Origin: Candidatus Xenobia bacterium
Lineage (GTDB): Bacteria > Vulcanimicrobiota > CADAWZ01
NCBI GenBank assembly: GCA_031551355.1
Contig: JAVBNT010000034.1
Coordinates: 11,987-75,986, forward strand
Direction: 5' to 3'
DNA length: 64,000 nt
Part shown: one piece after another, positions 1,983-53,084 of the stretch
How positions within the stretch are numbered: the first letter of the stretch is position 1
Layout: the number at the start of each line of letters is the position of its first letter
Position numbers and translations under genes: made by a program
The notes under the pieces: model-generated
The model's input: only the letters and a program-made list of their open reading frames with translations
Told to the model about the DNA's origin: nothing
The model's database searches: none

Positions 1983-3218
1983 ATGAAGAGTTGCCTTCAA
2001 AGAGAGATGGACGCCAGAAACCTTGACTGGATAATCCTCTCCGGCGATACTGTTTCGACTCCTGATATAAGGTATATACTCGGCAAATCCAATCTCATAC
2101 GTCCTACAATTCTTATAAGAAAAAAATCAGAGCCGGTCGTTGTTTATGAGCCGATGGAAAGAGAAGAAGCCGTTAAGTCCGGAATGGATGTCTTTTCACG
2201 CGAAGATATTTTACCCCGTTCTAAAATTTTAGCTCTGCCTGGTGAAAAAGATCGGCAGATTTCTTTTTTTTCCGCCCTTTTGGATCGTTTTTCCGTTTCC
2301 GGAAACGTTCTGTTTTCCGGAAATGATGAAATATTGAATTCATTTGCAATTCATGAATTTCTGATTTCACATAGAAAAGACATAACGATTGCCGCTTATG
2401 AAAATAAAAGCTTGTTCCAGACGGTAAGGCAGACTAAGGAAGATTATGAACTTGACCTTTTAAGAGATGTCTCGGTCAGAACGATGAAGATTTTTGGGGA
2501 AATATTTTCATTTCTGAGAAAGTCCAGACTTGTTAACGGAGTTTTGAAGAATGACAGCGGCGCCAGTGTTTTACTGGGAGATATAAGAAAACTTGTGCTG
2601 AGGGTAATGGCTGCGGAAAGTCTAACCCCGGAGCAAATCCCTATTATTGCTATGGGTAAGGATGGGTCAAGCCCTCATTGCCGGGGAACCGATTCAATGG
2701 AAATTAAGCAGGGTATGCCCATAGTTATGGATATTTCTCCCAAATGTTCAGTTAGCGGATATTTTTCCGATGTGACAAGAACTGTTTGCGTGGGTAAAGC
2801 ACCGGATCAACTTTGCGACATCTACAGCCAGGTAAAACAAGCCTATGAAATTGCCGTCAAAAGTGTTGCATGCGGTAAAAAACTGTCGCATCCGGACAAG
2901 ATGGTTAGTGAGTATTTCCGTTCAAAGAAACATCCGGTTGTAATGGATACCCCGGGAATAACCAAGGGATATACGCATTCACTGGGACATGGTGTCGGCC
3001 TTGAAATTCATGAGCTTCCGCGCGTAAGCGCTTATAATGATGATGATGCCAAAATATTTCAGCCGTCAATGGCCTTTACCATCGAACCGGGATTGTATTA
3101 CGGCAATATGGATCTGGGAGTCCGGCTGGAAAATACTTTTTGTTTGGATGCCGATGGGAAGCTGGAAAATTTGACGGAGATGCCCATGGAACTTGAAATA
3201 TGGCCTCAAATCAATTGA
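1983..3218 (+). CDS. M24 family metallopeptidase (Xaa-Pro aminopeptidase/prolidase-like)
   Basis: C-terminal pita-bread fold motifs: DISPKCSVSGYFSDVTRT, HSLGHGVGLEIHE, TIEPGLY; N-terminal creatinase-like domain. Stop codon TGA lies inside the first repeat-element module (caaatcaattga). Confidence 0.8.
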   Translation: MKSCLQREMDARNLDWIILSGDTVSTPDIRYILGKSNLIRPTILIRKKSEPVVVYEPMEREEAVKSGMDVFSREDILPRSKILALPGEKDRQISFFSALLDRFSVSGNVLFSGNDEILNSFAIHEFLISHRKDITIAAYENKSLFQTVRQTKEDYELDLLRDVSVRTMKIFGEIFSFLRKSRLVNGVLKNDSGASVLLGDIRKLVLRVMAAESLTPEQIPIIAMGKDGSSPHCRGTDSMEIKQGMPIVMDISPKCSVSGYFSDVTRTVCVGKAPDQLCDIYSQVKQAYEIAVKSVACGKKLSHPDKMVSEYFRSKKHPVVMDTPGITKGYTHSLGHGVGLEIHELPRVSAYNDDDAKIFQPSMAFTIEPGLYYGNMDLGVRLENTFCLDADGKLENLTEMPMELEIWPQIN

Positions 3219-3726
3219 AACCGGCGAATCTGCGTCGTCGCAGGCTATTTCGCTCGTTCGACGTAGTAAAGACTACGCCTCACTCGTCGAAATAACCTTT
3301 GACTTAGCATCTCCGCCGGTTTGAATTGATTTGTATTTTATTGAATTCCCCTCCTTCGGAGGGGTGTCGCAAAGCGACGGGGTGGTTTTCTGCAAGTCAA
3401 ACCGGATATTCGCTCGCTCGACGTAGTTCAGGCTATGGCTCGCTCGTCGAAATCCTGCTTGACTTAGCATCTCCGCCGGTTTGAATTGATTTGTATTTTA
3501 TTGAATTCCCCTCCTCCGGAGGGGTGTCGCAAAGCGACGGGGTGGTTTTCTGCAAGTCAAACCGGATATTCGCTCGCGCGACGTAGTTCAGACTACGGCT
3601 CGCTCGTCGAAATCCTGCTTGACTTAGCATCTCCGCCGGTTTGAATTGATTTGTATTTTATTGAATTCCCCTCCTCCGGAGGGGTGTCGCAAAGCGACGG
3701 GGTGGTTTTCTGCTAAGTCAACTTGA
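3205..3726. repeat. Tandem array of three complete 160-bp units (family A miniature repeat) plus left-end module; hairpin-rich (palindrome cccctcctccggagggg nested in ccggtttga...tcaaaccgg)
   Basis: Motif ttgacttagcatctccgccggtttgaattgatttgtattttattgaattcccctcc recurs at 3299, 3459, 3619 (period exactly 160); units >95% identical; no unique spacers. Confidence 0.9.
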
Positions 3727-3760
3727 ATGCTCGATCGAACGCTCGACGTAGACTAAGACT

Positions 3761-3955
3761 CAATGTCATTATGTTAAGAGAAGCTATTCTTGGATTTTGA
3801 CAAAAATCACGAAATTAATTCGCTCCACGCGTCATTGCGAGCCTGTAAGGCGCGGCAATCCAGGCATTTGTTTTTCTGGATTGCTTCGTCGGTGCCTCCT
3901 CGCAGTGACGAAAATGGCAAAAACGGAGATTTAAAACCTTAACTTATGACATTGA
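3761..3955. mobile_element. MITE-like element (family B' variant) bounded by the same terminal inverted repeats caatgtcatta...taatgacattg but with a different 160-bp core
   Basis: TIR caatgtcattatgttaag at 3761 and cttaacttatgacattg ending 3955; internal 7-bp IR aatccag/ctggatt. Confidence 0.6.
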
Positions 3956-4120
3956 GATAAGACTACGCCTTGCTCGTCGAAATCGCCTTTGCCTTAGCAT
4001 CTCCACCGGTTTAAATTGATTTGTATTTTGATAAATTCCCTTCCTTTGGAGGGGTGTTGCGAGGCGACGGGGTGGTTCGTCGCCAAACAGGATACTCGCT
4101 CGCTCTACATAGATAAGACT
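3956..4120. repeat. Solo family A unit (diverged, ~85% to tandem units)
   Basis: agactacgccttgctcgtcgaaatcgcctttgccttagcatctccaccggtttaaattgatttgtattttgataaattcccttcctttggaggggtg... aligns to 160-bp unit. Confidence 0.8.
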
Positions 4121-4268
4121 CAATTTAAGAGAAAATGATTTCTCACAGAGAAGAAGAGAACACAGAGAGGGTTTTAACCGGCATTTATCCTCCGTGGCCT
4201 CTGTGCCCTCTGTGAGAGAGCCAAAGATGTCAAAATCGGCGATGAAAAACTTTAACTTAATGACATTG
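4121..4268. mobile_element. Family B MITE-like element (left TIR truncated), internal palindrome ctcacagag...ctctgtgag
   Basis: Near-identical to copies at 9907-10063 (inverted) and 63505-63656; ends with ttaacttaatgacattg. Confidence 0.8.
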
Positions 4269-4335
4269 AGATCAGACTGCGTCTCGCTCGTCGAAATAAT
4301 GTTTGTCTTAGCATTTATACCGATTAACTTTTGAA
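4269..4335. repeat. Family A fragment (agatcagactgcgtctcgctcgtcgaaat...cttagcat...)
   Basis: Matches 5' module of A unit; ends ~45 bp before gltX start. Confidence 0.6.
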
Positions 4336-4381
4336 ATTTTTACGGCTGACATTATAAAATCAGCCGCTTAGGGAGGATTTT

Positions 4382-5890
4382 ATGTCTAAAGAATTCAGAG
4401 TCCGTATAGCTCCTTCGCCTACAGGCGAGCCGCATGTCGGCACAGCTTATATAGCTCTTTTTAACCGTTGCTTTGCGAAGTCGCGCGGGGGCAAATTCAT
4501 ACTAAGGATTGAAGATACGGATCAGGGGCGTTCGACAGCCCAATCTGAACAGTCTATTTTTGATTCTCTGAACTGGCTCGGCCTTTCGTGGGATGAGGGG
4601 CCTGATGTTGGCGGTCCTTACGGTCCTTACCGGCAGTCTGAGCGCCTTGAATTGTATAAAAAACATGTTCAGCAGTTGCTTGACACCGGAAAAGCATATA
4701 AGTGTTTTTGTACAAAAGACGATCTTGACTCTTTAAGAAAACGTCAGGAATTCGAAAAAAGACCGGCCGTGGGATATTTTGCTTCCGACTCTCCCTGCAG
4801 AAACCTGTCGGAATCTGAAGTTGAGGAGAGAGAGAAGAGGGGGCTGCCTTTTGTCGTAAGATTAAAAGTCCCCAATGAAGATCCTGACGGTGAGATTACT
4901 TTTTTTGATCATATAAGAAAGAAAGATATTTCGAGAAAATATTCCGAAATAGATGAGCAGATTTTGCTTAAGTCGGATTCTTTCCCTACTTACCATCTGG
5001 CAAATGTTGTCGACGATCATCTTATGGATATCAGCACTGTTGTCAGGGGAGAAGAGTGGATTGTTTCGACTCCTAAGCATGTGCTTCTTTATAAGGCGTT
5101 TGGCTGGGATTGTCCCGACTTCTATCATTTATCGCTTTTACGCAATCCCGATAAAAACAAAAGCAAGATTTCAAAAAGAAAAAATCCTGTATCCCTGCGC
5201 TGGTTCAGAGCGGCGGGTTATACGCCTCAGGCTCTGCTGAATTTTCTTGCCCTGATGGGATATTCAAGAATTTCCGAAGGTAAAACGAAGGAAGAGCTGG
5301 CCTCGCTCGAGATGTTTTCTATCGAAGAACTTATAAAAGAGTTTGACCCCGATAGAATTTCAAGTTCCGGTCCGGCATTTGATTATGAAAAGCTTGGGGT
5401 GATAAATGATTCTTACATGCAAAGCATGTCGGTTGAAGAATTTTGCCGTTACCAAAACGACAGGCTTGTCTATCTGATGGAATATCTGGGAGAGCTTGCT
5501 CCGGAAGTGAAGAATCGTTTCCGTCGTTTTGACAGGGAAGTATGCCATGTCACGGATTTTCTGTTCCGTATGAAAATGAATTACTCCCCGCAGGAGTTTT
5601 CCAAGGTTAAAATTGCGCCGAAAGAAACGGCCGCAATGTTAAAAACCATCCAGAAAAATTTTAAAGACAATGCGGTTTCAATTAATTCTGTCGCTGAATT
5701 CAAAAATGTTATTGCCGAAATAATCGGTAATAACGGTTTTGACAACCGTGCTGCACATATGGCGCTTAGAGTGGCAATGGTCGGTTCGGCGGAGTCGCTT
5801 CCTCTTTACGAATCGATGAGTGCTCTTGGCGTATACCGGTGCATTTCAAGAATAGATGAAGCGGTAACTTTTTTAAATAGTCTATCTTAA
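4382..5890 (+). CDS. gltX: Glutamyl-tRNA synthetase
   Basis: Class I aaRS HIGH motif ([12 protein letters not shown]), KMSKS-type KISKRK, typical GluRS N-terminus [10 protein letters not shown]; 502 aa. Confidence 0.95.
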
Positions 5891-5901
5891 GGAGAAATAA
5901 T

Positions 5902-7590
5902 ATGTCCGAAACATTGGAAATAAAAGAAACAAAATCATCTGATTTTATCAGAGAAATAATAGACAACGATAACGAAACCGGAAAGCATGCAGGGCGGGTG
6001 GCTACGCGTTTTCCTCCGGAGCCCAACGGCTATCTGCATATTGGACATGCAAAGTCCATTTGCCTGAATTTTGGCATAGCAAAGCAATACGGAGGCACAT
6101 GCAACCTGCGCTTTGATGACACAAACCCTTGTAAGGAGGATACGGAGTATGTCGATTCCATCATGTCGGATGTCAGATGGCTGGGGTTTGACTGGCAGGA
6201 CAGAATGTATTATGCTTCCGATTATTTTGAGAAACTGTATAATTATGCCGTTGAACTGATAAAACTCGGCAAAGCATACGTTTGCGACCTCAATGCGGAA
6301 CAGATACGCGAATACAGGGGAACTTTGACTGAACCCGGTAAAAACAGTCCCTATCGTGACAGGAGTGTGGAGGAAAATCTCGATCTGTTTCAGAGAATGA
6401 GAAACGGGGAGTTTCCTGATGGAACAAGAGTTTTGCGGGCTAAGATTGATATGGCTTCTTCCAATATGAATATGCGTGATCCGGCTGTTTACCGGATACG
6501 GCATGCACATCATCACCGGACCGGTGATAAATGGTGTATATATCCGATGTACGACTTTGCCCATTGCCTTTCGGACAGTATTGAAGCGATAACGCATTCC
6601 ATATGTACGCTTGAATTTGAGATTCACAGGCCCCTTTATGACTGGTATCTTGATGTTCTTAAGGTGAAAGATCATCCGCAGCAGATAGAGTTTGCCAGGC
6701 TAAACCTTACTTATACGGTTATGAGTAAACGCAAGCTTTTGCAGTTGGTTACGGAAAAGCATGTAACCGGTTGGGACGATCCCAGAATGCCTACCATTTC
6801 CGGTATGAGAAGAAGAGGCTATACTTCCGAGGCAATCAGAAAATTTTGTGAGCTTATCGGCGTAGCCAAAGCCGACAGCACCGTTGATGTCTCTTTGCTG
6901 GAGCATTGTATAAGGGAAGACCTCAACAGGCGTTCGCAAAGGGTTATGGGTGTATTGAGGCCGATCAAGCTTGTTATTGACAATTATCCGGAAGGAAAGA
7001 CGGAAGAGCTGGATGCGATAAATAATCCGGAAGACTCTGATGCCGGGTATCGAAAAGTCACCTTCTCCAGAGAACTTTATATTGATTCCGAAGATTTTAT
7101 GGAAGAGCCTCCTAAAGGCTTTTACCGTATGAGTCCCGGTAAGGAAGTCCGGCTGAAAGCCGCTTATTACGTTACATGCACGGATGTTGTTAAGGATGGC
7201 CAGGATAATATAACCGAAATCCACTGTACTTATGACCCGGAGACGAAAGGCGGTACGTCCAATGACGGACGTAAAGTGAAAGGAACTTTGCATTGGGTTA
7301 ATGCTTCCGACTGTATTGATGCCGAGGTCAGGCTTTACGGTCCGCTTTTTAAGTCTGTTAATCCGTCTGCGGTTGAAGATTTTTTGACCGATATAAATCC
7401 CTGTTCCCTGCAGGTTCTGAAAAATTGCAAGCTGGAAAAATCTATGGCGGGCGGGCAGGCAGGCTATACGGTACAGTTTGAGAGACTGGGGTATTTTTGC
7501 GTAGATCAGGATTCTTCTGATGATAAGCTTGTTATGAATAGGACGCTGCCGTTGAAGGATACGTGGGCTAAGGTTTCCCAAAAAAGTTAA
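5902..7590 (+). CDS. glnS: Glutaminyl-tRNA synthetase
   Basis: [18 protein letters not shown] (HIGH), VMSKRKL (KMSKS), 562 aa with C-terminal anticodon-binding beta-barrels typical of GlnRS; immediately downstream of gltX. Stop TAA embedded in repeat module aaatcaattgaaaccggcg. Confidence 0.85.
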
Positions 7591-7812
7591 ATCAATTGAA
7601 ACCGGCGAATCTGCGTCGTCAAGCCGGATATTCGCTCGCTCAACGTAGTCCTGCTACCTCGCTCGTCGAAATCCGGCTTGCCTTAGCATCTCCGCCGGTT
7701 TGAATTGATTTTGATTTTAATAAATTCCCCTCCTTTGGAGGGGTGTCGCGGAGCGACGGGGTGGTTTCTGTGTCGTCAAACCGTACGCTGCGCCTCGCTC
7801 GTCAAAATTCAA
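7588..7812. repeat. Family A miniature repeat copy (left-end module + one unit) in glnS-rtcB spacer
   Basis: tcaattgaaaccggcgaatctgcgtcgtc...cttagcatctccgccggtttgaattgattttgattttaataaattcccctcctttggaggggtgtcgcggagcgacggggtgg. Confidence 0.85.
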
Positions 7813-7942
7813 TTTGCATAGCCTCCAGACACAATTGACTGTCTTTTTTGTCATTCCCGTGCAGACGGGAATCCATCCCCCGACAACCGGCAAGATCGCC
7901 GATAACTGTCAACTAATAACTAAAAACCCGGAAGGTTCCCCA

Positions 7943-9159: not shown

Positions 9160-9831
9160 ATGTCGGATATGGATACTTTATTCAAAAACCGCAGGATAAA
9201 GCCTCAGCAGCTTCTGACTTTTGGTTTTTCAGAACTCGACGGTGTTTATACCTATTCCACCGGTCTGGTTGACGGTCAGTTTGAGATGACGGTTACCATT
9301 GGCCGGAACGGGGAAGTCTTAGCGGAAGTAATCGACAGCTTTTCAAAGGAGCCTTATACGCTCCATCTTGTCTCTGATGCCAAGGGAGCGTTTGTGGGAA
9401 TGGTCCGCCAGGGATATTGGGATGTACTTAATGCTGTTGCTGTCTCCTGTTTTGAGTCTGATGTGTTCCGAAGTGATGAGGCAGGGCAGCTCCTTCAATA
9501 TGTTAAAAATAAATACCATAGCGAACCGGAATTTTTATGGAAGCGCTTTTCCGACAATGCCATTTTAAGACGCCGGGACACCGCCAAATGGTATGCTGCA
9601 TTACTGACCGTGCAAAAAAATAAACTGGGACTTGCCGGGGACGGTAAGATTGAGATTATTGATCTGCGGGTTAGGCCGGCAGAGGTGGACGCTCTGGTGG
9701 ATGGGAGGAAATATTTTCCCGGTTACCATATGAATAAAAAACATTGGTTCACGATTTGTCTTGACGGCTCGGTTCCCGTGGAAGAGATTTTTGAGCGGAT
9801 AGATCAAAGCTTTGTTCTTGCGGTGAAGTGA
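9160..9831 (+). CDS. MmcQ/YjbR-family DNA-binding domain protein with ~110-aa N-terminal extension
   Basis: C-terminal FPGYHMNKKHWFTICLDGSVPVEEIFERIDQSFVLAV is the MmcQ/YjbR signature. Start ambiguous (GTG 9130 overlapping rtcB stop, or ATG 9160). Confidence 0.65.
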   Translation: MSDMDTLFKNRRIKPQQLLTFGFSELDGVYTYSTGLVDGQFEMTVTIGRNGEVLAEVIDSFSKEPYTLHLVSDAKGAFVGMVRQGYWDVLNAVAVSCFESDVFRSDEAGQLLQYVKNKYHSEPEFLWKRFSDNAILRRRDTAKWYAALLTVQKNKLGLAGDGKIEIIDLRVRPAEVDALVDGRKYFPGYHMNKKHWFTICLDGSVPVEEIFERIDQSFVLAVK

Positions 9832-9906
9832 TTTGCTAGTCAGCCGCTGCATACTTTGCCCTGTGTCCGTCAGCCGTAAATCTTTTTGACCGGCGAACCC
9901 CCCCCC

Positions 9907-10063
9907 GCAATGTCATTAATTAGTATTTTTCATAACCGACTTTGACATCTTCGGAACTCTCACAGAGGGCACAGAGGCCACGGAGGATAAATGCCAGTTA
10001 AAACCTCTCTGTGTTCTCCTCTTCTCTGTGAGAAACCCTTTTCTCTTAACTTAATGACATTGC
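9907..10063. mobile_element. Family B MITE (157 bp) with perfect 13-17-bp TIRs gcaatgtcattaa / ttaatgacattgc, flanked by C9 and C8 homopolymer tracts
   Basis: Reverse complement is ~90% identical to 4121-4268 and 63505-63656; poly-C 9898-9906 and 10063-10070 directly abut the TIRs. Confidence 0.85.
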
Positions 10064-23034: not shown

Positions 23035-24267
23035 ATGCCGGTTACGAGATATGATATCTTTTTCGCTGTCGCCGCACAGGGGGATTCCGACGAAAAAGAT
23101 ATAAAAAATTTTCTGTCTGTTCATGATGATATGCTTTTTGCCCAGGATGTTCAACTGCTTGTTTCCGATAAGCTTCTCGAACGCCACGGGAGCATCTTGA
23201 AATATCCGGCCAACAATCAGAACGCGTCGCTGTTGTTTAATGTCCTCTCATTCACTGTTACTCATAATATAAATTATAACAGTTACATTTCAAGCCCGAT
23301 GCTGGTCTTTTTGGAACAGACTTATGCACAGAATTATTTTTCAATTGCCGACGTCCAGCAGTTTGACGATATGAAAAGGATAAACATATCGATATTGCGT
23401 AAGGACGGGTTTTTGCTGATGATGGAAGAGTCTCCTTTCAGAGCAAAGATAATACAGAACAGCTTTTTTGATATAATACTGAAATTAAACAGAAGATCTG
23501 TTGCCAATACGGACAAGAAAAGAAAAACTATGTCTGTAGAGGCCATGCTTATGGAAGAAATGATTAAAAAGCAGATGGCTGCCAAGTTCGGCTCTGCAAT
23601 TGCTTCTCCTAAGCCGGAAATTCCTTATTATGAAGAGGACGATCCGGTGAAAGGTGTCTTTTTACATCTGTCCAGGGAACAAAAAGCCATAAAAGCCATA
23701 CTTTCATTGAAAAATCAGGAAGCTCTTAATGTTACTTTTACTCAGAACCTGCAAAAAGCACAGGAGCTGATGAGAAGAAATGTTTCCCTTAGAAAAGGGC
23801 TGTCGGCAGAACTTATTGTCGAATACCATAAGGTATTGATGGACGATCCCGAAATCGGTGGTATTTTCCGCACGGAGCAGGTTGTGGTAGCCGGAAATCC
23901 GCATTTTAAAATTTGCCCTCATAACAAAATAAAAGACAGTCTTAACAAACTGCTCGACAGGTATGCGAAAGCTAAATTTAAAGGTTTGCCTGATGTGGTA
24001 AAATTTGGAGCTTATCTGCACAATGAACTTCAGCATATACACCCGTTTGTTGACGGCAACAGCCGTTTGACGAGACTTGTTATGCAGCACTTTTTCAGTC
24101 TGTATAACCTTCCGGATTACGAGATTCCCGTACCGTATATAAGCAGATATACGGCCCTTACCAAAGGTGCCAGAAACAGGGATGATAATAAACTGTTTGA
24201 GCTTCTAAAAGAGATCTTTTTGTATATGATGAAGGTTGCCACTTCATCATCCGTTGTCGTAAAATAA
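23035..24267 (+). CDS. Fic/Doc family protein with long N-terminal extension
   Basis: Fic motif HPFVDGNSRLTR (HxFx(D/E)GN(G/S)RxxR) near C-terminus; 410 aa. Confidence 0.75.
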   Translation: MPVTRYDIFFAVAAQGDSDEKDIKNFLSVHDDMLFAQDVQLLVSDKLLERHGSILKYPANNQNASLLFNVLSFTVTHNINYNSYISSPMLVFLEQTYAQNYFSIADVQQFDDMKRINISILRKDGFLLMMEESPFRAKIIQNSFFDIILKLNRRSVANTDKKRKTMSVEAMLMEEMIKKQMAAKFGSAIASPKPEIPYYEEDDPVKGVFLHLSREQKAIKAILSLKNQEALNVTFTQNLQKAQELMRRNVSLRKGLSAELIVEYHKVLMDDPEIGGIFRTEQVVVAGNPHFKICPHNKIKDSLNKLLDRYAKAKFKGLPDVVKFGAYLHNELQHIHPFVDGNSRLTRLVMQHFFSLYNLPDYEIPVPYISRYTALTKGARNRDDNKLFELLKEIFLYMMKVATSSSVVVK

Positions 24268-24269
24268 AA

Positions 24270-24338
24270 CAAAAACAGGCGAATTTGTGCCGCTAAATTT
24301 GATTTGGCTTAACATCTCCGCCTGTTTTTTATTTTTTG
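24270..24338 (+). terminator. Terminator-like hairpin derived from a family A repeat fragment, followed by T-run
   Basis: aaacaggcg...ggcttaacatctccgcctgttttttattttttg: 9-bp stem arms with internal A-family motif ttaacatctccgcc. Confidence 0.45.
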
Positions 24339-32145: not shown

Positions 32146-33954
32146 TCATAATTTGTATTGTCCGTTGTCGTTTATTTTTAACAGCCAGATGTCTTCATCA
32201 TCGTTTGTTCTGCCTTTTCTGTCTGGAATATCGCCCCCTGAATTGGAAAGGGTGTATCCGGTAACGAGCAGGCAGCCGTCTGCGGTCTTTGTGATGGATG
32301 AGGATGTATCATTACCGTCTCCGCCATAGCATTGATTGAATACAATTGATTTGTCGTGCTCTGTTTGTGATGTGTCAATTTTTAAAATCCAAATGTCGTT
32401 TTTTATTGTTTCCGTGTCTTTTCGCTGAGGTATATCTCCCCCGGGCAGAGAATTTGTTACTCCTGCAATGGCGATAAAGCCTTCGTGAGTCTTTGTTATG
32501 TCATAAGGCACGTCCCATCCGTCTCCGCCGTAGCATTGATTGAATACAATTGATTTGTCGTGCTCTGTCTTTGATGTGTCAATTTTTAGAAGCCAGATGT
32601 CGATGCTATCTGTTACTCTGCCTTTTCTGTCCGGGATATCGCCTCCGGAATTGGAACTTGTCGTTCCTGCAATGGCGACAAAGCCTTCGTTCGTTTCGGT
32701 TATACTATAAGACATTTCGCCACTGTCTCCGCCGTAACATTGGTTGAATACGATAGATTTGTCATGGTCTTTCTGTGAGGTATTAATTTTTAGAAGCCAG
32801 ATGTCGCTGTTATCTGTTCCTCTGCCTTTTCTGTCCGGGATATCGCCTCCGGAATTGGAACTTGTCGTTCCGACAATAGTCAGACGGCCGTCGTTTGTTT
32901 CAGTGACTCCGTGTACTATTTCTGAAGTACCGCCACCATAGCATTGATTGAATACGATTGATTTGTCATGGTCTGTTTGTGATGTGTCAATTTTAAGCAG
33001 CCAGATATCACTGTTATCTGTTCCTCTGCCTTCTCTATCAGGAATGTCGCTGCCGGCAGGAGAGCTTGTTTCCCCGGCAATGGCAATACAGCTATCTTTT
33101 GTTGTGATTATTGCGTTTGGAATGTCGTATGCGTTGCCGCCGTAGCATTGGTTGAATACGATAGATTTGTCATACTCTGTCTGTGATGTGTCAATTTTAA
33201 GCAGCCAAAGATCTTTGTCATTTTTTCCAATACCCCTTCTGGCAGGGATATCTTCTCCTGTAGGGGAGTTCGTTTCTCCGGCAATGGCTAGGCAGCCGTC
33301 ACTTGTTTCCACTATTGCATATGCGTAGTCGTCTTTATTTCCGCCATAGCAGCGGTTAAACAGTATTGATTTATTATGATCTGTTTGCTTTGGGTCAATC
33401 TTTATTACCCAAATGTCGAGATTACTGGTTATGCCTTTTCTTTCTGGGATATCGCCTCCGGAATCGGAACTAGTATTTCCGGCAATGGCAATGCAGCCGT
33501 CCTTAGTTTCAATTGCTTTCCAGGTCATCTCATTTTTGTTGCCGCCGTAGCATCTGTTGAGCAGTGATGAAGCCATTTTTATATCTTCAAGCTGCATGGA
33601 TGATGATGAAATTGTTATGTCTCTATACTGAGCTGCGTATCCACTGCCTGGTCTGAAATATTCTATTTTATATTCACCGGGTGTGAGAGTGTCTATTTTG
33701 TAATATCCTTGCGCATTGGTAAAGACTTTTGGTGAGTGCTGTTTGGCGGATGTTGTTGCAATGCTCACTTCAATATTTGCCAGCGGCTGTAACAGCTCGC
33801 TTGAAATAACCCTTCCCGATATTGAATAAACCTGTTCGGATGGTGGTAAACTTGCGTTGCCTCCAAAGAACCTGTTTTCGTTTGCTCCACTACAGCCGCA
33901 GATAGTTGATAAGGTAATACAGATTAATAATATGATGGCTTTTGTTTTTAACAT
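32146..33954 (-). CDS. Lipoprotein with carboxypeptidase-regulatory-like domain followed by eight ~48-aa SBBP-type beta-propeller repeats
   Basis: Lipobox LSTICGCSG; N-domain GRVIS...TNAQGYYKIDTLTPGEYKIEY; repeats F(N)(Q/R)CYGG...DG(C/F)(I/L)AIAG.TSS..GGDIP.RKG...D..DIWLLKID.SQT.HDKSIVF x8. Confidence 0.65.
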   Translation of the reverse strand: MLKTKAIILLICITLSTICGCSGANENRFFGGNASLPPSEQVYSISGRVISSELLQPLANIEVSIATTSAKQHSPKVFTNAQGYYKIDTLTPGEYKIEYFRPGSGYAAQYRDITISSSSMQLEDIKMASSLLNRCYGGNKNEMTWKAIETKDGCIAIAGNTSSDSGGDIPERKGITSNLDIWVIKIDPKQTDHNKSILFNRCYGGNKDDYAYAIVETSDGCLAIAGETNSPTGEDIPARRGIGKNDKDLWLLKIDTSQTEYDKSIVFNQCYGGNAYDIPNAIITTKDSCIAIAGETSSPAGSDIPDREGRGTDNSDIWLLKIDTSQTDHDKSIVFNQCYGGGTSEIVHGVTETNDGRLTIVGTTSSNSGGDIPDRKGRGTDNSDIWLLKINTSQKDHDKSIVFNQCYGGDSGEMSYSITETNEGFVAIAGTTSSNSGGDIPDRKGRVTDSIDIWLLKIDTSKTEHDKSIVFNQCYGGDGWDVPYDITKTHEGFIAIAGVTNSLPGGDIPQRKDTETIKNDIWILKIDTSQTEHDKSIVFNQCYGGDGNDTSSSITKTADGCLLVTGYTLSNSGGDIPDRKGRTNDDEDIWLLKINDNGQYKL

Positions 33955-51550: not shown

Positions 51551-51815
51551 TGTTACTATAATTTTCAAAAATATAAAAAGGCTGTCAATTGTATCCATAG
51601 GCTAAGGCAAGCCGGATTTTGACGAGCTGGAAGCTGATTATTAATAAAAATTCAATTAACTGTACTTAGATCGGCCGTTCCTTACAAAATCAAAAATAGT
51701 TCAAAACAAGGGTAGGCAAAGAAGGCAGAGGCAGACGAGCGAGGCGTAATATATTACGTCGGAGTGAGCGAGACCGATAGCCTGACGCTGCATAACCGAA
51801 GTTTTCAACTATTTT

Positions 51816-53084
51816 TCAGAGCCAGTTGTCTCGTGGCCTGTTAAAATTGCCAATAAGGATCTTGTCCCCGTATCTTTCCTTAATCATTTTTAATATCTTT
51901 ACGATTCCAAGAGGTTTACCCTTGAGTGTCGGCATTTTGTCGTAAAACATTTCCGGATCCATATTGAGATTTCTCATTTGTATCATACTTGGTCCGAAAG
52001 CGTCGAGGAACTCGATAAACTTGCCAAATTCGTATTCATTATCGTTGAATCCCGGCATGGTTAGGAAATTAATGCTTACAAAAAGCCCTTCATCCACAGC
52101 CAGTCTTACGGTTTCCTTTACTTCTTTGAACATATAATCGGCCGGCTGAAAGAACTTGTCATAATTTTCTTTGACGGCTGAATTCATACTCACTCTTATG
52201 GTATTAAGTCCTGCTGCAATGAGCTTTTTTACCAGTAACGGTTTGGAGCCGTTTGTATTTATGTGGATTGTCCCCTGATCTGTTTTTGCCCTGATTTGCC
52301 TGATCGCTTTTTCTATAAGTTCCGCCTGAAGCAAGGGTTCCCCTTCGCATCCCTGTCCAAAACTGATTATCGCTCCCGGCCTTTCAAGGTGGGGGACGGC
52401 AATTTCTTCTATTTCATCCGCTGTCGGCACAAATTTAATGCGATCCTGCGGAGACGGCGGTCCTTTTTTTCTCTTTTTGGAAATGCAGCCCTCGCAGTTT
52501 GCATTGCATGCCGGTGAGGTTGGAATTCCACCTTCCCAGCGGTCATAAAAAATATTCTGGGCGTTGTAGCACGAATATTCCACTGCACAAACGGACAGAT
52601 GTTTTAAAAGCCTGTTGGCAGGAAAAAGCTTTAATTTCTTTTTTATTTTGTTTTTTAGATCGGGACTGTCATATTGTGTCGGATCCCAGCGCAGGGAAGA
52701 GTCGGTTTTAATTGCCGCAATATAGAACTCTTCTTTGTAAAGCGCTCCCATTGTATATGCGAAGAACGGCAACGGCTCTTTTCTGTTTACATGGTAGGCC
52801 GGTAGCAGCGTTCTTGTGTATCCCGGAGGCGGAATGAATCCGACGGCTGTTACTTTCTCCTTGTCGGCTTGAAAGTAATGTTCTCTCTTGCCTTTCTTTA
52901 CTCCCATAGGATCCCTGCCGGGAAGCAAAAATACATCAGTGCCGTATGGTATTTCGCACATTTCGTTTATATCGGGTTCTTTCAGAGAATCCCGGCCATT
53001 TCTGGCAAGCGCAAAATATGATTTGTTTTCAGTTACTTCACCGTCGGCAGATGCCTGTAGTGTGTAAAATTTATTTTCGGCCAC
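51816..53084 (-). CDS. Radical SAM domain protein with N-terminal ~200-aa extension
   Basis: CxxxCxxC: PACNANCEGCISK; downstream GQGCEGEPLL (SAM-binding GGEP-like). Confidence 0.65.
   Translation of the reverse strand: MAENKFYTLQASADGEVTENKSYFALARNGRDSLKEPDINEMCEIPYGTDVFLLPGRDPMGVKKGKREHYFQADKEKVTAVGFIPPPGYTRTLLPAYHVNRKEPLPFFAYTMGALYKEEFYIAAIKTDSSLRWDPTQYDSPDLKNKIKKKLKLFPANRLLKHLSVCAVEYSCYNAQNIFYDRWEGGIPTSPACNANCEGCISKKRKKGPPSPQDRIKFVPTADEIEEIAVPHLERPGAIISFGQGCEGEPLLQAELIEKAIRQIRAKTDQGTIHINTNGSKPLLVKKLIAAGLNTIRVSMNSAVKENYDKFFQPADYMFKEVKETVRLAVDEGLFVSINFLTMPGFNDNEYEFGKFIEFLDAFGPSMIQMRNLNMDPEMFYDKMPTLKGKPLGIVKILKMIKERYGDKILIGNFNRPRDNWL

Follow-up and report, generated by a model that had tools for sequence, protein, structure and literature searches.

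A long-hairpin repeat family at stop codons of a Candidatus Xenobia bacterium contig and the miniature transposons inserted in it

A stretch of 64,000 nucleotides (nt) from contig JAVBNT010000034.1 of Candidatus Xenobia bacterium, hereafter the window, was analysed for the repeats that fill the junction between an M24 peptidase gene and gltX. The junction was found to carry a tandem array of a 160-nt hairpin-forming repeat, called family A here, in which two units are split by members of a second family, B, of miniature inverted-repeat transposable elements (MITEs). Elements of family A meet the stop codon of the upstream gene wherever they occur in the window. Family A is probably, at roughly 0.6, an intergenic repeat with a long hairpin that is specific to its lineage, is or once was mobile, and is of the same kind as the repetitive extragenic palindromic (REP) sequences and bacterial interspersed mosaic elements (BIMEs).

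Organisation of the array between the M24 peptidase gene and gltX

The flanking genes were confirmed with Pfam as M24 peptidase (1983-3218), gltX (4382-5890) and glnS (5902-7590). The M24-gltX spacer measures 1163 nt and is nearly all repeat sequence; the repeats were recovered by Tandem Repeats Finder, BLAST and nhmmer where the earlier note had placed them. Alignment with both B-type inserts removed revealed that the block 3208-4343 is composed of five head-to-tail A units of 160 nt. Units U1-U3 are uninterrupted, and U4 and U5 are each split by one B-type element, which enters the loop of the inner hairpin S1 at an identical position in both. The stretches previously read as a solo A unit and a separate A fragment are therefore units 4 and 5 of one continuous array. 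The parts of the array are as follows.

3208-3239, plus strand: left arm or left module of A (AAATCAATTGAAACCGGCGAATCTGCGTCGTC), which holds the M24 TGA (3216-3218) and pairs with the right arm at 3315-3333.
3208-3389, plus strand: unit U1, with left arm, inner hairpin S1, right arm with T-rich tail, and S2.
3390-3549, plus strand: unit U2, 160 nt, intact; Tandem Repeats Finder period 160, nhmmer E = 1e-54.
3550-3709, plus strand: unit U3, 160 nt, intact, 97% identical to U2.
3710-4078, plus strand: unit U4, split by the element B' into a left half (3710-3759) and a right half (3956-4078).
4079-4343, plus strand: unit U5, split by a B element into 4079-4119 and 4270-4343; its right arm is degenerate and S2 is missing.

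The 160-nt unit consists of the imperfect inner hairpin S1 of about 80 nt, a right arm (CGCCGGTTTGAATTGATTT) with a T-rich tail, and a distal part, S2, formed by two short GC hairpins. The array starts with an A-rich left arm (AAATCAATTGAAACCGGCG), which is complementary to the right arm except for one G.G mismatch, so that the first unit folds as a hairpin of about 125 nt with the upstream stop codon in its base. This left arm is confined to the array start and is absent from the internal units.

Tandem Repeats Finder reported a single array, which covers 3249-3721 and comprises 3.0 copies of a 160-nt period at 94% matches. The copies found by BLAST and nhmmer were 3230-3388, 3390-3548, 3550-3708, 3955-4077, 4269-4325 and 7611-7767, with weaker matches at 51568-51772 (minus strand) and 24293-24327. 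The BLAST identity to U2 drops with distance from the M24 gene, being 97% for U3, 92.6% for U1, about 83% for U4 and about 80% for U5. An identity above 95%, which had been ascribed to all three tandem units, thus holds for U2 and U3 and not for U1 against U2.

At the distal edge of the array a promoter-like site, TTGAAA-18 nt-TAAAAT, is present at 4331-4360 (plus strand), 22 nt upstream of the gltX ATG, and is recognised by consensus matches only (10 of 12). Its -35 hexamer belongs to the degenerate right arm of U5, and its TAAAAT stands at 4355-4360. The short-read Logan contigs of the source organism end exactly within the 32-nt left module or within B, as is expected where repeats exceed the k-mer of the assembler.

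Contact with stop codons at four loci

Elements of family A are present at four loci in the window, on strands +, +, + and -. Those outside the M24-gltX spacer are as follows.

7589-7849, plus strand: second A array, with U6 complete (7589-7770) and U7 truncated (7771-7849); its left arm overlaps the glnS TAA (7588-7590).
24265-24335, plus strand: shortened A relative that begins at the TAA (24265-24267) of a Fic-domain gene; nhmmer E = 0.002, fold z = -4.9.
51568-51818, minus strand: diverged A array of one unit and a partial second, with its left arm at the TGA (51816-51818) of a radical-SAM gene.

In all four (4/4) the start lies between -8 and +1 nt relative to the upstream gene's stop codon, and the orientation is that of this gene. 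The 32-nt left module is 100% identical between its copies at 3208 and 7589 (7589-7620), the latter overlapping the final two bases of the glnS TAA; the claim that the module abuts the stops of two genes, and overlaps the M24 TGA, is thereby borne out at both places. Directly after the radical-SAM TGA (minus strand) stands AAAATAGTTGAAAAC..., a diverged left arm, and directly after the Fic-domain TAA stands AACAAAAACAGGCG..., the arm of the short copy. The inverted copy previously placed at 51735-51790 is present; it extends over about 51568-51818 and its left arm also abuts a stop codon. The repeats are hence not restricted to the M24-gltX spacer, and the contact with a stop codon recurs at the other loci.

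The probability that an element placed at random comes to lie, with matching orientation, no more than 14 nt from a stop codon was estimated from 44 genes and 11.5 kb of non-coding DNA. It amounts to about 0.027 per locus, about 2e-5 for three loci and 5e-7 for four. For six canonical terminators of the window the distance from stop codon to start is 10-53 nt, compared with -8 to +1 nt for family A; terminators in this genome do not generally touch the stop codon, and the contact is therefore peculiar to A. The Logan contigs are continuous through the radical-SAM copy and the short Fic copy, which are therefore unique variants. A loose motif scan gave no further short A-like terminators beyond the four loci.

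The 3' ends of the two genes with the intact left module were compared. That of glnS reads AGT TAA ATC AAT TGA and that of M24 reads CCT CAA ATC AAT TGA in the same frame, the M24 stop being a TGA provided by the repeat. In translation the M24 C-terminus is ...ELEIWPQIN*, compared with ...ELEIDIK* and ...LIINPK* in homologues. The simplest reading would be that an ancestral M24 TAA changed to CAA, with read-through to the in-frame TGA.

On the distal side of the glnS array, the mechanically called open reading frame (ORF) of RtcB starts at TTG 7814 and traverses the array end (7814-7942). The gene itself probably starts at ATG 7943 (MIVLNGKY...), because the first residue covered by the Pfam match is 68.

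Miniature transposons within the A hairpin

Four copies of family B were identified in the window; terminal inverted repeats are abbreviated TIRs.

3760-3955, plus strand: B' MITE inside U4, with TIRs tcaatgtcattatgttaag and cttaacttatgacattga and inner palindrome cgtcattgcgag...ctcgcagtgacg.
4120-4269, plus strand: B MITE inside U5, with left TIR partly deleted and palindrome tctcacagag...ctctgtgaga.
9907-10063, minus strand: complete B copy, with TIRs GCAATGTCATTAA and TTAATGACATTGC and flanks CCCCCCCC and CCCCCCCG.
63513-63657, plus strand: B copy with truncated left end.

The two copies in the array are both flanked by 8-bp duplications, ACTAAGAC (3752-3759) and GATAAGAC (3956-3963) for B', and GATAAGAC (4112-4119) and GATCAGAC (4270-4277) for B. 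The inserts have the same orientation, U4 reading gtag-ACTAAGAC-(B')-GATAAGAC-tacg and U5 atag-GATAAGAC-(B)-GATCAGAC-tgcg. The intact units U1-U3, which read gtag-ttcagac-tacg, act as empty sites within the window and indicate a target duplication of 8 bp.

B and B' have in common only their ends of about 20 nt, (G/T)CAATGTCATTAAGTTAAG, and their interiors differ: that of B is a CACAGAG...CTCTGTG palindrome and that of B' a CGTCATTGCGAG... palindrome. The TIRs of B' had been given as caatgtcatta/taatgacattg; the right one is ttatgacattga, one base shorter than in B. Family B has TIRs, 8-bp duplications at three copies, a length of 150-200 nt, no coding capacity and four copies, and together with the empty sites in U1-U3 these features make it a true MITE, in accordance with its first description as MITE-like. 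It is probably moved by a DDE transposase encoded elsewhere, and the A hairpin tip appears to be a favoured target.

The 9907 and 63513 copies were also considered as lying inside degenerate A units, and this was rejected as the flank alignment scores equalled those of shuffled controls. Just left of the 9907 copy, the segment 9868-9892 (gtaaatctttttgaccggcgaac) resembles the A left arm at about 20 of 23 bases, the wider flank being at the shuffled level.

A search with the B inner palindrome matched five JGI contigs, in which the CACAGAG hairpin is common to B and the TIRs are not. In JGI contig Ga0182011_10005652 (515-965) the palindrome halves TCTCACAGAGGGCACAGAGG ... CCTCTGTGCCCTCTGTGAGA enclose about 400 nt of coding sequence, the putative product of which resembles GxxExxY/PD-(D/E)XK proteins. 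Collapsed ends of a cassette of this type may have given rise to the interior of B. A short hairpin module, GTCATT...GGAATCC (e.g. gtcattcccgtgcagacgggaatccat), was seen after the glnS array (7850-7876) and inside B' (3838-3912). It is also present in the relative with 79% GltX identity described below (10198-10225 of its locus), and from these occurrences it appears to be a small palindrome common to different lineages.

Structure of the A hairpin

The folding of the A elements was evaluated by z-scores, which ranged overall from -4.9 to -8.2. The first unit gave -5.9 at M24 (3200-3400), and at glnS -6.4 on the plus strand and -8.2 on the minus strand. Folded as DNA, S1 of U3 has an energy of -21.5 kcal/mol (z = -5.0). 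RNAalifold on seven S1 sequences yielded 24 pairs, of which 5 carry double compensatory changes. Comparison by eye of the outer stem between the M24 and radical-SAM copies revealed the exchanges A-U to G-C, C-G to U-A and U-A to A-U, with the G.G mismatch retained in both. Between the full A and the short copy CCGGCG/CGCCGG is replaced by CAGGCG/CGCCTG and the inner 3-bp UGC/GCA by UGU/ACA, and the 4/4 internal loop is kept. In the predicted folds the arms and the inner stem are shown to retain their pairing through compensatory changes.

The short copy at 24265-24335 has an A-rich arm, a GC stem and then a U-run with terminal UUUUUUAUUUUUU, which is the textbook form of a bidirectional terminator and agrees with the earlier description of an A fragment as a terminator stem near 24300. 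In the full A units the GC core is followed by UUUGAAUUGAUUU, where 5 of the 8 following bases are U, and the hairpin is very long.

The array as an insertion in a conserved gene order

The loci of GltX homologues were compared with the window. Two relatives with 74% and 70% GltX identity keep the order M24-gltX-glnS with M24-gltX spacers of only 29 nt and 8 nt, respectively, and the block is therefore regarded as an insertion into an operon junction, thereby supporting the earlier suggestion of inserted sequence. In the closest relative (79%) a different gene stands upstream and nothing A-like follows glnS. A third relative (70%) has an M24-gltX spacer of 642 nt (9359-10000 of its locus) with its own unrelated AT-rich repeat, having copies at 9397 and 9706 and inverted pieces, and several short-read contigs break there. 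In a second lineage, too, the M24-gltX junction is a repeat hot spot.

The nearest named GltX relatives in a protein search are metagenome-assembled genomes (MAGs) labelled Candidatus Eremiobacteraeota (66%) and Vulcanimicrobiota (61%), the taxonomy by this route being rough. A pattern-based genome scan with GltX gave, among the matches listed, identities of 42-49% over most of the query and one partial match of 59%, which are uninformative for taxonomy.

Searches for family A elsewhere and for a mobilising enzyme

Apart from the Logan contigs of the organism itself, neither A nor B was found in 1.46 Mb of fetched loci. The exact pattern of the A right arm had 0 matches in 185,579 GTDB representative genomes and 0 in JGI metagenomes, the A left arm and the B core had none in viral contigs, and the whole block had no BLAST match in plasmids. 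A spurious ORF of 65 amino acids (aa) from the A unit retrieved nothing in a word-indexed protein search and, against 1.84 billion representatives, two low-complexity chance matches only. A search of Rfam at permissive E-values returned noise only. A transposase gene bounded by GCAATGTCATTAAGTTAAG, if one exists in the genome, would identify a mobilising enzyme.

Comparison with known repeat families

The resemblance to REP/BIME that the earlier note had proposed holds in overall likeness and in stop-proximal placement and fails in size, end tag, palindromic halves and alternating orientation. REPs of Proteobacteria, with their GTAG- and CGTC-tagged superfamilies, lie mostly less than 20 bp from ORF 3' ends and their termini provide stop codons; their dimers fold into larger hairpins, and occasionally they form large clustered blocks (Di Nocera et al. 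2013, PMC3733652). Family A is likewise intergenic, palindromic and downstream of ORFs near the 3' end, where it may supply the stop (compare PMC3733652). As in REPs, its units can cluster in mosaic blocks, are targets of mobile elements and may act as RNA hairpins. Unlike REPs of 20-40 bp, the A hairpin spans 80-125 nt, it has no unpaired GTAG or CGTC end tag, and its sequence is unrelated. Unlike in BIMEs, where REPs of alternating orientation are separated by conserved linker motifs, the units run head-to-tail at a fixed period of 160 nt and do not alternate in orientation.

In the REPINs of Pseudomonas, which occur with the REP-associated tyrosine transposase (RAYT), a hairpin of about 100 nt may be the replicating unit. 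The A hairpin of about 100 nt, as a possible replicating unit with GTAG/CTAC motifs, is similar; its halves, however, are not REP hairpins, and no RAYT is present among the window ORFs. The BOX elements of Streptococcus pneumoniae are modular (boxA-boxB(n)-boxC), and A has a comparable plan with a distinct left module, variable tandem internal modules, a distinct distal end and a highly structured RNA, although its sequence is unrelated. BOX elements are not known to lie in such a register with stop codons. Correia/NEMIS and ERIC-type MITEs are co-transcribed with their neighbours, affect termination and mRNA stability, and have defined target duplications, which is TA for Correia elements. 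Family A is like them in its size of about 100-160 nt and its long inverted arms and differs in having no target duplication.

The B insertions also have a counterpart. ISPpu9 of the IS110 family inserts into REPs (PMC12288879), and B-type elements sit twice at the same point of the A hairpin loop. Unlike ISPpu9, B is non-autonomous, 150-200 nt long and flanked by 8-bp duplications, and its two other copies lie outside recognisable A. IS1397 is another insertion sequence (IS) that inserts into REP hairpins.

Proposed explanation and its alternatives

From its structure and placement, A behaves like a REP/BIME-type element while standing outside those sequence-defined families. Each of its main features has precedent, namely the stop contact, the tandem blocks and the mobile elements that target repeat hairpins, and A is a new sequence family. 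The arrays would extend by tandem duplication on the gene-proximal side, because the proximal units are 92-97% identical and the distal ones are 80-83% identical and carry the B insertions. The A element would be transcribed as the 3' end of the upstream mRNA, where it would most likely serve as a terminator and/or a barrier to 3' exonucleases. Targeted insertion at gene 3' ends and a terminator function, offered as alternatives in the earlier note, may both apply. Where a REP in E. coli lies 15 nt or less from a stop codon, ribosomes are reported to stall and translation of the upstream gene to be lowered (PMC12306157). The A hairpin may similarly damp translation of the upstream gene, since its base lies within the footprint of the terminating ribosome. 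Expression of gltX-glnS could be restored from the promoter-like consensus match at 4331-4360. The B elements would be transposons of DDE type, non-autonomous and with a preference for the A hairpin tip, in the way that IS elements target REPs.

Several observations weigh against this explanation. The family rests on four loci because the readable source genome comprises the 64 kb of the window and about 8 kb of a Logan contig. How many tandem units there are is known from the assembly of the window itself, as the short-read contigs stop inside the repeats and do not confirm the number. No transposase, RAYT (Y1), DDE enzyme or integrase was found among the ORFs of the 64 kb, and no direct repeat flanks the A arrays at 3208/4343 or 7589/7849. 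The U-tract behind the GC core of full-length A is interrupted (UUUGAAUU). The long A hairpins were missed by a consensus terminator scan, whose sites were no more numerous than in shuffled sequences; the scan admits loops of 3-8 nt, and those of the hairpins are too long for it. The two B insertions at the same site could be one event followed by duplication of the unit. Termination, mRNA stabilisation and promoter use are all inferred.

Family A might instead be of REPIN type, that is, a REP doublet moved as single-stranded DNA by a single-copy RAYT (an IS200/IS605-like Y1 enzyme) encoded elsewhere. In favour of it are the complementary motifs GTAG and CTAC at the S1 tip, the long symmetric hairpin with a conserved outer-stem G.G mismatch that makes the strands differ, and the REP-like placement by ORF 3' ends. 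However, GTAG is base-paired with CTAC and is not an unpaired end tag, and the halves of S1 are not palindromes and do not fold alone (z = +0.7 and +0.3). The orientation follows the upstream gene on both strands and not one replication strand, and the window holds no Y1 transposase. These findings render a REPIN origin unlikely. The strict REP-dimer reading was rejected on size, tag and the folding of the halves.

An ordinary cut-and-paste MITE, with the arms as TIRs, a DDE transposase acting in trans and the stop contact arising by purifying selection, was also considered. Inverted arms of 19 nt bound the first unit, the left arm provides in-frame TAA and TGA stops, and B is an active-looking MITE family in the same genome. 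Neither of the well-preserved arrays is flanked by a target-site duplication, however, which places A outside the definition of a MITE, and the left arm is missing from the internal units. Selection alone leaves unexplained why no copy sits 10-53 nt past a stop, where ordinary terminators begin. An origin of this kind is judged improbable.

Another proposal, put forward with considerable doubt, is that A is a new mobile terminator cassette inserted specifically at stop codons by an enzyme that is neither a RAYT nor a classical DDE transposase. Such insertion might be cued by a stop codon in A-rich surroundings, or by some feature of the termination of transcription or of translation. If true, a cassette of this type could split operons and re-wire expression.

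It is quite improbable that the A units are selected and not selfish, as functional RNA genes or cis-regulatory RNAs such as small RNAs derived from 3' untranslated regions. Stems kept by compensatory changes and the strict orientation relative to transcription would agree with this. On the other side, the best Rfam match scored 17 bits against a gathering score of 58.7, relatives lack A at the corresponding sites, the two strands fold to the same degree, as those of a DNA palindrome would, and the distal units decay and tolerate transposon insertions.

Integron-type attC or other recombinase attachment sites after gene cassettes are hardly credible, for although imperfect palindromes of about 125 nt with a conserved mismatch at or overlapping the stop recall them, the arms are TTGAAAC and GTTTGAA and not RYYYAAC / GTTRRRY, the neighbours are housekeeping genes in conserved synteny, the window has no integrase, and head-to-tail arrays with no intervening genes are not cassette-like. 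A MIRU-type intercistronic repeat, in which small ORFs carried by the repeat overlap the stop and start codons of its neighbours, was rejected, since 160 nt is not a multiple of 3, so that the array ORFs shift frame at each unit, and they stop short of gltX.

Other features of the window

Two tandem units of 146 nt at 42656-42947 each repeat the 3' ~45 nt of tRNA-Met (42947-43023, minus strand), and a partial third copy of this repeat lies 0.8 kb off at 41824-41860. They look like scars of serial integration at the tRNA gene; no integrase was found near them. Three tandem paralogous genes of about 435 aa with C-terminal ADP-ribosyltransferase toxin-like domains are present at 10769-14684 (minus strand). 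An ORF of 602 aa at 32146-33954 (minus strand) has 5-7 tandem coding repeats of 204 nt (68 aa) and an N-terminal CarboxypepD_reg-like domain.

Conclusion

The repeats account for the breaks of short-read assemblies at these genes. The M24-gltX block offers a clean natural case of a repeat array that splits a conserved aminoacyl-tRNA-synthetase operon junction, and the B insertions offer a natural case in which a MITE family appears to target another repeat in its loop. With the strict stop register of family A one could ask if such hairpins link the termination of translation to the formation of transcript 3' ends. If the explanation preferred here is right, REP/BIME-like repeat biology would extend to a poorly known uncultured lineage whose nearest named kin are Eremiobacterota/Vulcanimicrobiota MAGs.

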